Shown here: piece after piece, positions 50,447 through 64,000 of the stretch
Layout of the letters: every line of letters starts with the position of its first letter
Position numbering within the stretch: the stretch's first letter is position 1
Sequence record: OQ540978.1
Length of the DNA stretch: 64,000 nt
From: Escherichia phage pEC-N1203-2Af.1
Reading direction: 5' to 3' (one strand)
Position numbers and translations under genes: made by a program
The notes under the pieces: model-generated
What the model was told of the DNA's origin: nothing
Seen by the model: only the letters and a program-made list of their open reading frames with translations
The model's database searches: none

Positions 50447-50549
50447 CTAAGGTGATTGTATACCTTACTCCCTTTTAGCTCGCTGTAGCGCGTTTTAGGC
50501 CGCCTATTGTTGCTTTACAAGCCGTTTTCTATGATGTATCACGTGCGCC

Positions 50550-50559
50550 CGCTCTTTTA
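50550..50559 (+). promoter_or_regulatory. boxA-like element
   Basis: CGCTCTTTTA. Confidence 0.35.
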
Positions 50560-50666
50560 CCTTCCTATAGTGAAAAAGTTTAAAATAATTTGCTTTGCCC
50601 TATTGCACTTCCTGAAAGCTCACGTATACTGATTTTCATCGGGTACGATGTAAAACATACGCCGCG

Positions 50667-50681
50667 CGCTCTTTAAAAATC
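50667..50681 (+). promoter_or_regulatory. boxA-like element
   Basis: CGCTCTTTAAAAATC, close to lambda nutL boxA as recalled. Confidence 0.45.
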
Positions 50682-50714
50682 AGGCTAGAAAGTGAAAAAT
50701 ACTTGAAAAAGTAT

Positions 50715-50742
50715 TTGACAACTGGAAAGCCTAACCTATAAT
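50715..50742 (+). promoter_or_regulatory. strong sigma70 promoter P1
   Basis: TTGACA, 16-nt spacer, TATAAT; AAATACTTgaaaaAGTATTT palindrome just upstream. Confidence 0.7.
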
Positions 50743-50885
50743 GAGCTTAGAAAGACAAGATGACCGCTCAAGTAACTCCCTAGTGAGTGAAGCAAGTCAG
50801 ACGCAGGCAGGCGGATACCATTCCCCGGAATAATCGCAGGTTATCTGATTATCAAATGGTGTTATGGGAGCCATACAGCTTTAAA

Positions 50886-50900
50886 CGCTCTTTAAAAATC
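50886..50900 (+). promoter_or_regulatory. boxA-like element (in P1 transcript)
   Basis: CGCTCTTTAAAAATC about 136 nt downstream of P1. Confidence 0.45.
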
Positions 50901-50933
50901 AGGCTAGAAAGTGAAAAATACTTGAAAAAGTAT

Positions 50934-50961
50934 TTGACAACTGGAAAGCCTAACCTATAAT
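50934..50961 (+). promoter_or_regulatory. strong sigma70 promoter P2
   Basis: TTGACA, 16-nt spacer, TATAAT (duplicate of P1). Confidence 0.7.
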
Positions 50962-50993
50962 GAGCACAAGTCAGCGATGACGTGAAACATCCC

Positions 50994-51013
50994 CGCTCTT
51001 TAAAAATTTATCA
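50994..51013 (+). promoter_or_regulatory. boxA-like element (in P2 transcript)
   Basis: CGCTCTTTAAAAATTTATCA, near-identical to the rrn boxA GCTCTTTAACAATTTATCA as recalled. Confidence 0.5.
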
Positions 51014-59517: not shown

Positions 59518-59739
59518 ATGATATTCGAAGCCAAGCAAACATTGCCGGTAGTTCCTTTGTCTACACTTCTTAGTGGGAGTGCTTTTAGACATGATAACGG
59601 TTTTTGGATTAAAGGAAACCAAGAGGTTGGAGGATATATCACCTGCATCAATATCTGCAATGGTGTTGTTGAGGTAAAGCGTCCAGCCGCTGAAGTAACT
59701 CCTCAACCCAATGCAAAGGTTGTAGGTTTGGTATATTAA
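59518..59739 (+). CDS. GDVF-family small protein (variant motif)
   Basis: LSTLLSGSAFRHDNGFWIK...ICNGVVEV; close paralog of the next ORF. Confidence 0.5.
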   Translation: MIFEAKQTLPVVPLSTLLSGSAFRHDNGFWIKGNQEVGGYITCINICNGVVEVKRPAAEVTPQPNAKVVGLVY

Positions 59740-59748
59740 GGAACTTAT

Positions 59749-59970
59749 ATGAAATTAGATTCTAAACAATCCCTTAAAACTGTTGAACTGTCCACACTGC
59801 CAAACGGAAGTATCTTTGGTCACGATAAACACTTCTGGATTAAAACAGACTACTTGAACGATGGGTATATCACCTGTGTCAACCTTTGGAATGGTTCAGT
59901 GGATGGTTATCGCCCTAATGCAAAGGTAATCCCTCAGCCTGATGCAAAGGCTACAGGTTTAGTTTACTAA
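59749..59970 (+). CDS. GDVF-family small protein (variant motif)
   Basis: LSTLPNGSIFGHDKHFWIK...LWNGSVDG. Confidence 0.5.
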   Translation: MKLDSKQSLKTVELSTLPNGSIFGHDKHFWIKTDYLNDGYITCVNLWNGSVDGYRPNAKVIPQPDAKATGLVY

Positions 59971-60985: not shown

Positions 60986-61231
60986 ATGAAGATCATCCCA
61001 AAGAAAAAGGATAATACGGTACGATTGGAAACAATCATTCCCGGAAACCCTTTCGTGGTTCAGCACGGAAGTGCCTCTCCTCAATATTATATGAGGGTTG
61101 AAAATGCATCTGGTAACATCCGTATAGCCAGTGGTTGGATTCCTGTAGTGAATCTATCCACTGGAGTATTAGCTGTTAAAGGTGCTGATGAACAGGTTGA
61201 AATGATTCGTATGTCAGTGGTTCAGGAGTAG
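60986..61231 (+). CDS. GDVF-family small protein (divergent)
   Basis: IIPGNPFVV ... VNLSTGVLAVKGAD. Confidence 0.45.
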   Translation: MKIIPKKKDNTVRLETIIPGNPFVVQHGSASPQYYMRVENASGNIRIASGWIPVVNLSTGVLAVKGADEQVEMIRMSVVQE

Positions 61232-61233
61232 GT

Positions 61234-61476
61234 ATGAGCACAATACATATCAAAGTTCATCATGAAGAAGAAAAGAAACTCTTTGTTAAAGATCTATCGA
61301 TCGCTGATATCTTCACTTTAAAAGAAGATGATAATCAGATCATCTATTTGATGATGCCTGTGACTGGAGGGTATCGAAGGGCTGTTTGTTTGGGTACAGG
61401 TGTGCCCCGTCCTGTTGCTGATACTCTTGAAGTTGGTGAGAAGTTTAGTAAGGCTGAAATTATCTTAACTCCATAG
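61234..61476 (+). CDS. GDVF-family small protein (divergent)
   Basis: LSIADIFTL ... CLGTGVPRPV. Confidence 0.45.
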   Translation: MSTIHIKVHHEEEKKLFVKDLSIADIFTLKEDDNQIIYLMMPVTGGYRRAVCLGTGVPRPVADTLEVGEKFSKAEIILTP

Positions 61477-61601: not shown

Positions 61602-61707
61602 GCCCTCTTCTCTCCTCCTTTTAGTACTATGACGCCTCTCTGTGGGCGGCCCAATTTGCGTAGGGAATTCCCTCTACGCAGCCATAACTTTTTAAGGAAT
61701 TTCCCCT

Positions 61708-61941
61708 ATGTCTAAAGTAAGCGCAATCGATGCAATCCGTCAACCGTTCCAGTTCCAATCCAAATCAACTCAAACCTTCAGTGAGCCTAAGCAAATTCGC
61801 TTGGGTGGCACAGAGAAGACTGTATTTGATCTGGCTAAAAACAAAAGCGTTACCGTAGTTGATGGTGGCACTCTGGTTAACGTTTCCCATCGCATCCGCA
61901 CTGGCAAAACTGCCAAAGATCGTGCCAAGAAAGGTGAGTGA
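61708..61941 (+). CDS. hypothetical protein
   Basis: 77-aa ORF. Confidence 0.45.
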   Translation: MSKVSAIDAIRQPFQFQSKSTQTFSEPKQIRLGGTEKTVFDLAKNKSVTVVDGGTLVNVSHRIRTGKTAKDRAKKGE

Positions 61942-62180
61942 TGAAAATAGGGAAACCGGCTGATGGTATAATAAAGATTAGTGATATATCTATTGGGGAA
62001 GTTTTCTCAGCAGAGCACTTTTCAAGTTACTACATGAAAATCCCTAACACTAAAGTAGAGGGTTGCATCATTCCTGCCAACGCAGTTAACCTGAACACAG
62101 GCCATCTGTCTGCATTCAAACCTGATTTACAGGTTACTGAAATCCGAGATGCCTATCTCGCCTTTGGTGGGGATAAATAG
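61938..62180 (+). CDS. GDVF-family small protein
   Basis: ISDISIGEVFSA ... VNLNTGHLSAF. Confidence 0.5.
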   Translation: MMKIGKPADGIIKISDISIGEVFSAEHFSSYYMKIPNTKVEGCIIPANAVNLNTGHLSAFKPDLQVTEIRDAYLAFGGDK

Positions 62181-62184
62181 AGTG

Positions 62185-62400
62185 ATGATAACACTTGTGT
62201 CAGTAGTTTACAGATTACACTATCGTCTAGATAAAGGAAAATCCTATAAATGCAAGAGTAAGACAGGGAATCGATGCTCTGTAGAAAATAACTCTGGTCA
62301 ATGGGTGGATGTACCTTGTTGTTGGTTCAGGAAAGATTTGACTAGCAAAGAGATTGACGAAATTCTTAGTGATGATTTTGTAAAATCAGGTGATTTTTAG
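62185..62400 (+). CDS. hypothetical Cys-containing protein
   Basis: Start moved to internal ATG 62185. Confidence 0.35.
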   Translation: MITLVSVVYRLHYRLDKGKSYKCKSKTGNRCSVENNSGQWVDVPCCWFRKDLTSKEIDEILSDDFVKSGDF

Positions 62401-62637
62401 TTGTAGTAACGCCTATAGCCTTCCCTCCGGAGGGCTATGTGAGTTATTCTGACTCAACTAACCTAATCTTAATATATTTCCCGTATGGGGCCGATGCTAG
62501 GGCGAGGAGTGTTCCTCAAACATCCGTCGGATAGATATTTTAAGAGCAGGTTATCCACAGATATTGGGTAATATCTTTTTGGATTTAAAGCTTGGCTCTT
62601 TTCGGAGAGTCCTTTTTTAAATTCAATGAGAGGAAAT

Positions 62638-62790
62638 ATGTCTAAATTAGATTTAAAACTGCTAGCAGCAGCGGTAGTGATTTGTGCACTAGCACTGGTA
62701 ACGCAGAGAACATCTGGATTTATTCAGTGTTTCTTTTCTGGGCAATCCACTTATCAGTGGATTATTGACGAGTGTAAACAACAGGAGTAA
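62638..62790 (+). CDS. small secreted/membrane protein
   Basis: 50-aa ORF translated by hand; GAGAGGA RBS; hydrophobic LLAAAVVICALALV. Confidence 0.35.
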   Translation: MSKLDLKLLAAAVVICALALVTQRTSGFIQCFFSGQSTYQWIIDECKQQE

Positions 62791-62792
62791 GT

Positions 62793-63155
62793 ATGAATAC
62801 ACGTCCCATTAAGGGCAACGTTAATATTGAAACTCTGAACAAGGTTGCATCAAATCTCGGTGGAATGTCCAACGAGGATCTTGAGCAAGAACTTGCTTGG
62901 ATTGCAAATGGTATCAAAGTTGCTAAAGGTAAGATTGCTCGTGAGCAAAGCAACATGAAAGCTCACAAGTATATCATCCGTCGTGCAAATACGTTACCAG
63001 AGCGGGTTGTACATCTTGCCCGTAAAAACTACGCAGATGCAAAGAAAGCTATGGAAGAAGCTACTTTCCAGAAGCACCAATTTATGAACAACTACAGAAA
63101 CTTCCGAGATATTCTTTATATCCGTAAGTCAATTGAGTTGATTAAAAACCAATAG
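62793..63155 (+). CDS. hypothetical protein
   Basis: 120-aa ORF. Confidence 0.5.
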   Translation: MNTRPIKGNVNIETLNKVASNLGGMSNEDLEQELAWIANGIKVAKGKIAREQSNMKAHKYIIRRANTLPERVVHLARKNYADAKKAMEEATFQKHQFMNNYRNFRDILYIRKSIELIKNQ

Positions 63156-63166
63156 AGGTTGGTATA

Positions 63167-64000
63167 ATGTTTCCAGTAACATTAGAAGATACTGAAGGTA
63201 ATGTTTTAACGGTCCACCCTCCTTGTTATGGGTTCCTTCAGCTTCGCAACTATAATGGTGGCGTTGATGAAGATGATTACGAAGATGAATACTTCGACCC
63301 TAACATGTATGAGGCAACTCATGGATGGAATATGCACGTTCGAGTGTGGCATGAAGAAGCTAACGTTCGTAGTGCTGATGGGGAAGAGTTCCTGTTAAGC
63401 CGAGAGATGGATATGTGTAAAATCAAGCATATCTGGAACTCCGGAACTCACATGAAGATGTTAGGTTTTAGACGATGGCGTGATGAAAAACCTGTATCCG
63501 CAGATTTATGTTGGGGTGCAATTGATCACGAAGGCGAGCTTAAAAATAACATTGAGCACTGGAATGATAAAAACCCTGAGTATCAAACCTCACCTCGTGC
63601 TGTACTGGAAGCTATGGAAGCATTTGTGGACAAAGATCGTCCCTCCTGTTTACGCTGGCACGAAAAAGGTTTTATGGGTGTAGCAACTGAGAATGTTCCT
63701 GCTGATCGTTGTCTGTTCTATTTAATGTTAGATCGAACCTTCTATTGTGATGATGAAGAGAGTCAAGTTGAAACCTTCCTTCATAAATGGTTGGTTGAAG
63801 GCTGGACAATTCTTCAGGCTTACGTTTACTCACGAATGGTTAGCACTTACACTAACCTCTTGGGTGAAACGAAAGCTACTCTTGTTGGTAATGATTGGGA
63901 TGCTTGTATCTTCCCAGCGTCGTTGTTTACGGTTGGTATGGCTGATAAATATGCTGAAGCATTTCAAGTGCCTTGGCGTCAACAGTCATACAGAGATGGA
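63167..64000 (+). CDS. hypothetical protein, 3'-truncated at window edge
   Basis: ATG 63167 after GAGGT; frame open for 278 codons to the window end; missing from the ORF track, which lists only an internal 63480-63683 ORF. Confidence 0.55.
   Translation, partial: MFPVTLEDTEGNVLTVHPPCYGFLQLRNYNGGVDEDDYEDEYFDPNMYEATHGWNMHVRVWHEEANVRSADGEEFLLSREMDMCKIKHIWNSGTHMKMLGFRRWRDEKPVSADLCWGAIDHEGELKNNIEHWNDKNPEYQTSPRAVLEAMEAFVDKDRPSCLRWHEKGFMGVATENVPADRCLFYLMLDRTFYCDDEESQVETFLHKWLVEGWTILQAYVYSRMVSTYTNLLGETKATLVGNDWDACIFPASLFTVGMADKYAEAFQVPWRQQSYRDG

Follow-up and report, generated by a model that had tools for sequence, protein, structure and literature searches.

What is the intergenic stem-loop that occurs twice in the early region of Escherichia phage pEC-N1203-2Af.1 (sequence record OQ540978.1), and what would it do there? 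The window analyzed here is the whole stretch of 64,000 nucleotides (nt). The copy of primary interest, copy 2, lies in the intergenic region 62401-62638 on the + strand, which follows the stop codon of the open reading frame (ORF) 62149-62400. The initial annotation of this DNA had recorded a conserved stem-loop element at 62420-62545 and regarded it as the second copy of an element at 56.6 kb (copy 1). Comparison with related sequences gives good support to a broader answer: the element appears to be a structured non-coding RNA domain of ~135-150 nt, made up of four hairpins (A, B, C, and D) and a conserved internal loop in hairpin D (the D loop).

All motifs quoted in the initial annotation were present at copy 2. 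The flagged stem consists of ATAGCCTTCC (62415-62424) and GGAGGGCTAT (62429-62438), with GTGAG directly after it. The stem starts 5 nt before the position first assigned to it (62420), and its loop, once the inner C-G/C-G pairs are counted, is the 4-nt CTCC instead of the loop originally proposed. The sequence GCTAGGGCGAGGAGTGTTCCTCAAACATCCG is located at 62496-62526. The 56.6-kb site has the identical outer stem and the identical GTGAG, plus GCTAGGGAGAGCTTGCTCGAACATCCG. The similarity of the two copies goes beyond chance. The 13-mer AGGGCTATGTGAG has exact matches only at 56629 and 62431 in the 64 kb, and structure-aware scoring, which the initial annotation had proposed as a check, joined copy 1 with copy 2. 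The covariance model R1 used for this purpose was built from alignment A3, which comprises 22 copy-2-type sequences (from other phages and from this one) and excludes copy-1 sequences. R1 recovered copy 2 at 62403-62537 with 160 bits and copy 1 at 56593-56720 with 56.7 bits (E ~4.5e-12). R1 found no third + strand match in the window; its remaining matches were weak, lay on the minus strand, and overlapped copy 2 itself, the better one scoring 24 bits. Chance similarity of the copies was rejected on the basis of this covariance-model E-value and the unique 13-mer. A plain MAFFT alignment of the copies was poor because their loop lengths differ. The shared 'GTGTTCCTCA' was indeed seen in both copies, but it is not collinear: copy 1 has it in hairpin B, and copy 2 in the inner stem of hairpin D.

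The conserved intergenic stem-loop in two copies was confirmed, as both copies are kept in ~100 Kuravirus and Suseptimavirus records. The original description was, however, too modest: the stem-loop is the first of four covarying hairpins in an RNA fold of ~135-150 nt. It also missed a long-range helix (P1) of copy 2 and the transcription terminator that follows. The end originally set at 62545 truncates copy 2, where P1 reaches 62553 and is followed by a hairpin at 62559-62576 and the terminator at 62594-62618. The features of the two copies are as follows:

62405-62410, + strand: conserved AGUAAC just 5' of the element, from the manual alignment of 42 distinct sequences
62415-62438, + strand: hairpin A (the flagged stem), 10 base pairs (bp), AUAGCCUUCC / GGAGGGCUAU, loop CUCC
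62441-62455, + strand: hairpin B, GAGUUA-UUC-UGACUC, a helix predicted by RNAalifold
62459-62472, + strand: 5' strand of P1, UAACCU-AA-UCUUAA, partner 62540-62553
62480-62489, + strand: hairpin C, CCC-GUAU-GGG
62491-62530, + strand: hairpin D, outer stem CCGAUG / CGUCGG, internal loop CUAGGGC / AAACAUC, inner stem and loop GAGGA-GUGU-UCCUC
62540-62553, + strand: 3' strand of P1, UUAAGA-GC-AGGUUA
62559-62576, + strand: hairpin E, AU-rich, AGAUAUU-GGGU-AAUAUCU, in the minimum free energy (MFE) and centroid folds of 62401-62625
62594-62618, + strand: intrinsic terminator, GGCUCUU-UUCG-GAGAGUC followed by CUUUUUU, from the terminator scan
56593-56720, + strand: copy 1, the paralog, with hairpins A (56609-56636), B, C, and D in the same order, from the covariance-model match

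The strongest evidence for an RNA structure is covariation. In the manual alignment, which was kept in fixed register, the four hairpins occur in constant order in all 42 distinct sequences. In a second alignment (A4; 40 distinct rows), which was derived from the model and therefore leans toward it, standard pairs filled 97.3% of the cells, and compensatory changes on both sides were found in 17 of 29 pairs. None of 500 shuffles matched these values, and pairing fell to 36-46% when the partners were slid by 1-3 columns. Helix C and the outer helix of D, examined at fixed positions in the manual alignment, gave a result that agrees with A4. Hairpin A paired in all cells of A4, with changes on both sides in 6 of 9 pairs. 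It is 9-12 bp long across the family, and its outer 6 bp are conserved in sequence in the enterobacterial phages; in a homolog from a contig binned with Flavobacterium (L022, described below), its sequence is entirely different and the stem is retained. Hairpin B follows the pattern GAGN...NCUC, and its fourth pair varies among members (U-A, C-G, G-C, A-U). Hairpin C has a 3-bp stem (CCC/GGG, GCC/GGC, or GGC/GCC) and an RUAU loop; every pair forms at fixed positions, and two positions swap between G-C and C-G. The outer and inner stems of D both covary. G·U pairs are frequent and occur at several positions, and because they fit the + strand only, the structure was assigned to the + strand RNA.

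In the copy-2-type members, P1 joins the linker after hairpin B to the tail after hairpin D and closes C and D into a three-way junction. RNAalifold predicted this helix, 3 of its 5 inner pairs showing compensatory changes, and each of five divergent copy-2-type members had it in the MFE fold. Its duplex energy in the copy-2-type elements is -12 to -16 kcal/mol vs about -6 to -7 kcal/mol for shuffled tails. In copy 1, P1 is weak or absent, with a duplex no better than in shuffles. The AGUAAC motif has the variants GUGAC, AUAAC, and GUAAU and is missing from the Flavobacterium-binned homolog; its UAA terminates the upstream ORF in many relatives. Helices between this motif and the tail GUUAU or the 5' arm of hairpin B were rejected, as a Suseptimavirus variant breaks them and covariation supports P1 and hairpin B. 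The whole 225-nt copy-2 stretch folds with z = -4.5 relative to shuffles.

The D loop is the most conserved part of the element. Its 5' strand is CUAGGG(M) and its 3' strand (R)AACAUC, within the wider consensus GCUAGGGM / RAACAUCCG. This loop was invariant in 42 of 42 sequences, including L022, except for one covarying M/R position per strand. The bases flanking the inner stem of D are A·G (24 sequences), C·A (16), or A·A (2), and never C·G, and M/R switches recur between near-identical sequences. This pattern suggests that the covarying M/R bases form a non-Watson-Crick, probably sheared, pair adjoining G·A pairs. K-turn and sarcin-ricin readings of the D loop were considered; neither consensus fits exactly, and neither is claimed.

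The element was not recognized as a member of a known family. The Rfam 15 scan of the whole window at gathering threshold returned tRNA only, and searches of 62380-62660 and 56570-56980 at E<=10 gave no match to the core. Weak Rfam matches fell outside the core: TarB (19 bits, in the terminator region), drum, sR15, and a viral pseudoknot. Judged by these comparisons, the element is an RNA family without an entry in Rfam 15 and is unmentioned in the accessible papers on phages phiEco32, SU10, and 7-11. In phage Paul, a 31-codon ORF runs across it (CPT_Paul_095, L002 9494-9589, corresponding to window 62439-62534), publicly annotated as a 31-residue hypothetical protein with a ribosome-binding site. 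This reading frame is not conserved: it has an in-frame stop after 12 codons in Suseptimavirus, and in Moazamivirus it lacks a start codon and stops after 9 codons. The element is therefore not coding, and genome annotators should drop the 31-codon call.

Several transcription signals were also considered and rejected. Hairpin A is not a terminator, as it is followed by GUGAGUUAUUCUG instead of a U-run and was not reported by the terminator scan. A hairpin promoter of the type used by the N4 virion polymerase was dropped because a phiEco32-like phage uses the host polymerase and a phage sigma factor. A sigma-70 promoter at the element is represented by a lone weak match (62449-62478, 9/12), which on reading was not conserved in phage 7-11, and none was found just upstream. 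The phage sigma-factor promoters AATGTA (phiEco32) and GTAAtg-16-aCTA (7-11) did not occur at conserved positions when inspected by eye.

We found the copy-2 intergenic region in 103 phage records, with identity down to ~70% in Salmonella 7-11-like phages (Moazamivirus, Grimontviridae), and the copy-1 region in Kuravirus and Suseptimavirus. The whole 7-11 genome has a single element, of the copy-2 type, within its long early transcription unit. Genes downstream vary by genus: 7-11 has a cell-wall hydrolase there, and this phage a small membrane protein. The core of hairpin D was also sought by pattern scans of IMG/VR (two scans), GTDB genomes, and metagenomes, which returned Kuravirus, Suseptimavirus, and Moazamivirus contigs, a few chance matches, and one outsider, L022. 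This 48.7-kb contig was binned with a Flavobacterium metagenome-assembled genome, and its element (L022:3017-3143) scored 54.7 bits with R1. L022 resembles a phage early region in its arrays of small + strand ORFs and in an HNH/Srd-like PHROG match. By tblastn, no ORF of L022 resembled anything in the 64-kb window, and blastn of its element against phage genomes gave nothing. The L022 element has no adjoining terminator, and its P1 is indistinguishable from chance. The other scan matches (L006, L007/L015, L021, L023-25, L032, L043-44, L054, and L057-59) were rejected, as they had no significant model score where tested or lacked the outer stem and the neighboring hairpins. No copy was found in 5,426 E. 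coli genomes.

The window derives from a phiEco32-like coliphage (Gordonclarkvirinae, Kuravirus, by best-match taxonomy). In a megablast search, the region 61700-63200 matched 97 phage records; the top match was Escherichia phage vB-EcoP-XT73 (96.5% identity), and KBNP1711, SU10, and phiEco32 were also among the matches. Dozens of small + strand ORFs between ~50.7 kb and the end of the window represent the early region. The early genes of phiEco32 are transcribed by the host sigma-70 RNA polymerase, and its middle and late genes with the phage sigma factor gp36 (PMC12276001, PMC4281155). Our promoter scan of the window identified three near-consensus sigma-70 promoters, at 50715, 50934, and 51239. 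Terminator-like sites on the + strand of the early region numbered 20 vs 9.4 in shuffled sequence, and phage SU7 is likewise terminator-rich (18 sites vs 6.1 in shuffles). The strong ones, past each of which the ORFs go on, are:

53116-53143, + strand: strong intrinsic-terminator-like hairpin
54446-54463, + strand: strong intrinsic-terminator-like hairpin
54531-54550, + strand: strong intrinsic-terminator-like hairpin
57295-57318, + strand: strong intrinsic-terminator-like hairpin
62594-62611, + strand: strong intrinsic-terminator-like hairpin, the one that follows copy 2

On these predictions, the early operon is punctuated by terminators that need read-through. The terminator after copy 2 is located ~40 nt beyond P1 and the junction in the copy-2 version of the element, and ends ~8 nt before GAGAGGAAA, the ribosome-binding region of the next ORF (start 62626 or 62639). 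It is conserved in Kuravirus, Suseptimavirus, and Moazamivirus and is annotated as a terminator at the homologous place in SU7 and 7-11. A literature search found no Kuravirus transcriptome.

The reading that we favor, with a probability of roughly one in three, is that the element may be a cis-acting module comparable to the nut and put sites of other phages, which would govern read-through of downstream terminators. There is good support that the element is transcribed within the long early operon from the three promoters at 50.7-51.3 kb by the host sigma-70 RNA polymerase. In this model, the folded nascent RNA would contact RNA polymerase during elongation, or a conserved elongation factor, via the invariant D loop, by itself or together with a phage early protein. 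This contact would set the share of transcription that passes the terminator at 62594-62618 and later terminators, and would thus gate the genes beyond the immediate-early block. Transcripts that stop at the terminator would carry a structured 3' domain.

Position and conservation are consistent with such a role. Only a few nt separate the element from the stop codon upstream, and the copy-2 ortholog always precedes a strong intrinsic terminator between early genes, with further genes beyond. The D loop is the same, apart from M/R, in phages of E. coli, in phages of Salmonella, and in L022, which shares no detectable protein with the window; this sameness would fit a partner that is universal, or an activity of the RNA by itself. 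These sequence comparisons thus argue against a host- or phage-specific partner and in favor of a universal machine (RNA polymerase, Nus factors, the ribosome, or RNase P), or of ligand binding or catalysis. In phage 7-11, only two sigma-70 promoters, at the right genome end, have been validated, and its authors considered an undefined antitermination strategy likely (PMC8948821). The single 7-11 element lies in the same transcription unit for which antitermination was postulated. No boxA cluster was found in the half of the 7-11 genome that was scanned (45-89.9 kb).

The closest precedents are the put and nut sites. Phage HK022 produces two similar structured RNAs, putL and putR, in the early transcripts of the host polymerase (PMC9378689). 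Like the element described here, put thus provides two similar structured RNAs per genome, in early operons with terminators that are transcribed by unmodified host RNA polymerase. The put RNA is a factor-independent processive antiterminator of ~70 nt, with two hairpins, located 0-270 nt from its promoter. The element, in contrast, is 135-150 nt long, with four hairpins to which copy 2 adds P1, and lies 6-12 kb from the promoters, with both copies in one operon. With filters off, R1 found nothing better than E ~1 in HK022 20-32 kb, which we ourselves placed as the unannotated PL/PR region, and it gave no match in the annotated nut region of phage L.

The nutR-tR1 segment of phages lambda and P22 has the same order as found here, namely the stop codon of an early gene, an RNA element, a terminator, and later genes, and there are likewise two sites per genome. 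Neither element contains a boxA (CGCUCUUUA-like) or a 15-nt boxB-type hairpin. No N-like protein was detected: the flanking ORFs matched only PHROGs of unknown function, and the search did not extend to the other ~45 small early ORFs. The terminator of the element is intrinsic, unlike lambda tR1, which is Rho-dependent.

The boxA-like repeats that recall the lambda/P22 nut sites are located elsewhere than the element, in the early leader of this phage. Five exact copies of (C)GCTCTTTAA(A/C/T)AA occur within 50549-51369 on the + strand (50668, 50887, 50995, 51123, and 51361) and alternate with the three sigma-70 promoters. The whole window contains 7 boxA-like matches vs 1.0 expected. On the + strand, GCTCTTTAA is restricted to 50668-51369, and the minus strand carries the two other matches (54146 and 58664). 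One of the five copies has the sequence CGCTCTTTAACAA, which we take to be nearly the boxA of the E. coli rrn operons. The cluster suggests Nus-factor antitermination, of the rrn or lambda type, as a candidate mechanism for the early operon. A perfect 80-nt direct repeat is also found in the leader (50667-50746 and 50886-50965, spacing 219 nt). Each copy holds a boxA-like sequence and a TTGACA-16-TATAAT promoter, and the early promoter module therefore appears to be tandemly duplicated.

Several observations weigh against control of read-through by the element. The two copies are 6 and 12 kb from the promoters, and at least three strong terminator-like sites (53116, 54446, and 54531) precede copy 1, so that something else must already allow read-through. 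The five promoter-adjacent boxA-like repeats could be this read-through system, which would make the element unnecessary. Copy 1 and the Flavobacterium-binned homolog have no adjoining terminator. The fold is unlike that of put (two hairpins, ~70 nt), and the model finds nothing in the antitermination regions of HK022 and phage L. Finally, a terminator right after a structured RNA is equally typical of a small-RNA gene.

This last point leads to the nearest rival, which we regard as possible but rather unlikely: copy 2 could be a stable small RNA of ~200 nt derived from a 3' untranslated region (3'UTR), which would be released or protected and act in trans by base pairing or protein titration. 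Like the enterobacterial 3'UTR-derived small RNAs, copy 2 starts after a stop codon and ends in a U-tailed intrinsic terminator preceded by a U-rich stretch (62577-62593). Together with the canonical hairpin and U6, this stretch makes up the 3' module that enterobacterial small RNAs usually have. The fold is far more stable than shuffles, and hairpin A at the 5' edge could shield a processed 5' end. A possible chaperone partner is a protein with an annotated ProQ/FinO domain in the 7-11-like phage pSal-SNUABM-01 (L018 2708-3436), encoded ~5.5 kb upstream of the element. However, copy 1 and the Flavobacterium-binned homolog are without a terminator, and the nucleotides under the strongest conservation are buried in an internal loop instead of forming an accessible single-stranded seed. 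Compared to typical seed-type small RNAs, the element is also much larger and more structured. Bacteroidota are not known to have Hfq or ProQ. The conservation in the Flavobacterium-binned contig poorly fits a host-specific chaperone or target, and the absence of similar sequences from the E. coli genomes searched also speaks against a small RNA of this kind.

A role in RNA processing or stability appears doubtful. The element would punctuate the polycistronic early mRNA, where cleavage by a host nuclease or a block to exonucleases would give the cistrons distinct half-lives. The location between cistrons, right after stop codons, in an operon with three tandem strong host promoters is in line with this possibility. 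The early region of phage T7 is laid out likewise, with RNase III sites punctuating the early mRNA, and its signals are related hairpins with internal loops that are repeated between early cistrons downstream of three tandem host-type promoters. Hairpin D, with ~18 stacked pairs and an internal loop, is broadly like these T7 signals. RNase III and RNase P are universal enzymes, and their universality would suit conservation across phyla. On the other hand, the element is found at only two of ~50 intercistronic junctions, and its 20 conserved loop nucleotides far exceed the known determinants of nucleases. Neither hairpin A nor the inner stem of D reaches the length of a classical RNase III substrate. 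Compared to the T7 signals, there are only two sites, with stronger sequence conservation, a multi-hairpin context, and shorter stems.

A riboswitch seems more doubtful still. The three-way junction of P1, C, and D would bind a widespread metabolite or ion as an aptamer, and whether the terminator forms would be decided by P1, which would form depending on the ligand. The copy-2-type members resemble three-way-junction riboswitches in that P1 closes the junction, some unpaired nucleotides are invariant, and a terminator comes soon after the 3' strand of P1; the covarying non-Watson-Crick pair would also fit, and cross-phylum conservation suits a universal ligand. In Kuravirus, the P1 segment AAGAGC (62542-62547) is complementary to the 5' arm of the terminator, GCUCUU (62595-62600), and could serve as an antiterminator. 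This complementarity is, however, only 4 nt in 7-11-like phages, and no switching helix appears to be conserved. In both the paralog (copy 1) and the distant homolog (L022), P1 and the terminator are either absent or not significant, the downstream genes differ between genera and form no coherent regulated set, and no riboswitch family of Rfam matches.

A role of the DNA itself, as a binding site for a protein or as a replication origin (for example through the DnaA box at 62551-62559 or inverted repeats that form cruciforms), is very improbable: DnaA-box-like sites are not enriched (21 vs 17.9 expected), so that an origin or a DnaA-box cluster was rejected, and only a single box is present here; G·U pairs and strand-specific covariation point to RNA and not to duplex DNA; the GC skew has no shift at the element; and copy 1 and L022 are without the box. 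The perfect DnaA-box sequence itself, TTATCCACA on the + strand, overlaps the 3' strand of P1. It is kept in every copy-2-type element of the three genera, including the bases UCCACA, which P1 does not need and does not explain. Near the terminator, it may serve as a genuine DnaA site, or its conservation may simply reflect a constraint on the RNA.

The surroundings of the two copies show further features. The fold of 56600-56960, which contains copy 1 and its downstream region, has z = -3.6, and the terminator scan found no terminator adjoining copy 1. Hairpins that follow copy 1 are:

56750-56769, + strand: hairpin with loop GGGG
56783-56810, + strand: hairpin with loop UAGGGGUA

The first of these, AAUAUGUA-GGGG-UACAUAUU, is the analog of hairpin E in copy 1, and the sequence-similar AUAUGUAGGUGUA follows the Flavobacterium-binned element, where the analog of hairpin E is ACUAUA-UGUAGG-UGUAGU. 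A counterpart of hairpin E was not evident in 7-11-like phages. The second hairpin, GGAGACUUCC-UAGGGGUA-GGGAGUCUUC, has stem pairs that, inspected by eye, appear to covary among Kuraviruses. The copy-1 region contains three occurrences of UAGGG. The 8-mer AGGGCTAT occurs 5 times in the window vs 1.6 expected; its third copy (56901-56908, + strand), ~290 nt 3' of hairpin A of copy 1, could be a long-range alternative partner of the 5' arm of this hairpin.

A 67-nt stretch 3' of copy 1 (56835-56901, + strand), carried by only some Kuraviruses, is ~80% identical to unannotated DNA of the P22-like phages ST104, L, ST64T, and BTP1. In phage L, this DNA, read in the direction of PL transcription, follows the boxB of nutL and precedes the start of gene 24, the analog of N, and the stretch thus resembles the leader between nutL and gene 24 of P22 and L. 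It contains an invariant CGGCAATGAGTACGC flanked by hairpins that seem, by eye, to covary. The 46-residue ORF after copy 1 (56958-57098) gave no alignment to gp24 of phage L.

A tRNA-Arg gene (anticodon UCU; 58867-58941, + strand) is located between copy 1 and copy 2. Paralogous small ORFs of 70-85 residues with the N-terminal motif ...LGDLxxGDVF... were found on the + strand by ORF inspection:

55887-56599, + strand: ORF family with LGDLxxGDVF motif
57671-57895, + strand: ORF family with LGDLxxGDVF motif
59518-59970, + strand: ORF family with LGDLxxGDVF motif
60986-61476, + strand: ORF family with LGDLxxGDVF motif
61938-62180, + strand: ORF family with LGDLxxGDVF motif

The array of small ORFs in L022 has a (K)GD(I/V)V motif and a C-terminal EENE, and the RNA element sits amid small-ORF arrays both in the window and in L022.

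The phiEco32-like phages are a model for phage takeover of host transcription (phage sigma factor, gp79) and are frequent among therapeutic isolates. Explicitly for 7-11, the question has been raised of how such very long early units get past many intrinsic terminators, and the element is a concrete candidate for an answer. In the most far-reaching reading, which we regard as possible but rather unlikely, the element would found a new class of phage RNAs that bind universally conserved transcription machinery via an invariant loop. It would either make RNA polymerase read through terminators by itself or sense a universal metabolite to gate the passage from immediate-early to delayed-early genes; it would be the strategy postulated for 7-11 and would be common to phages of Proteobacteria and Bacteroidota. 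The known regulators of RNA polymerase that consist of RNA alone number no more than a handful. Structured regulatory RNAs in the early transcripts of phages are in themselves familiar; what is new is the fold, the invariant loop with its covarying non-canonical pair, and the occurrence in both enterobacterial phages and a Flavobacterium-binned contig. If the element is instead a small RNA or a riboswitch, it would still be a new class of phage RNA, with a core conserved across distant bacterial phyla.

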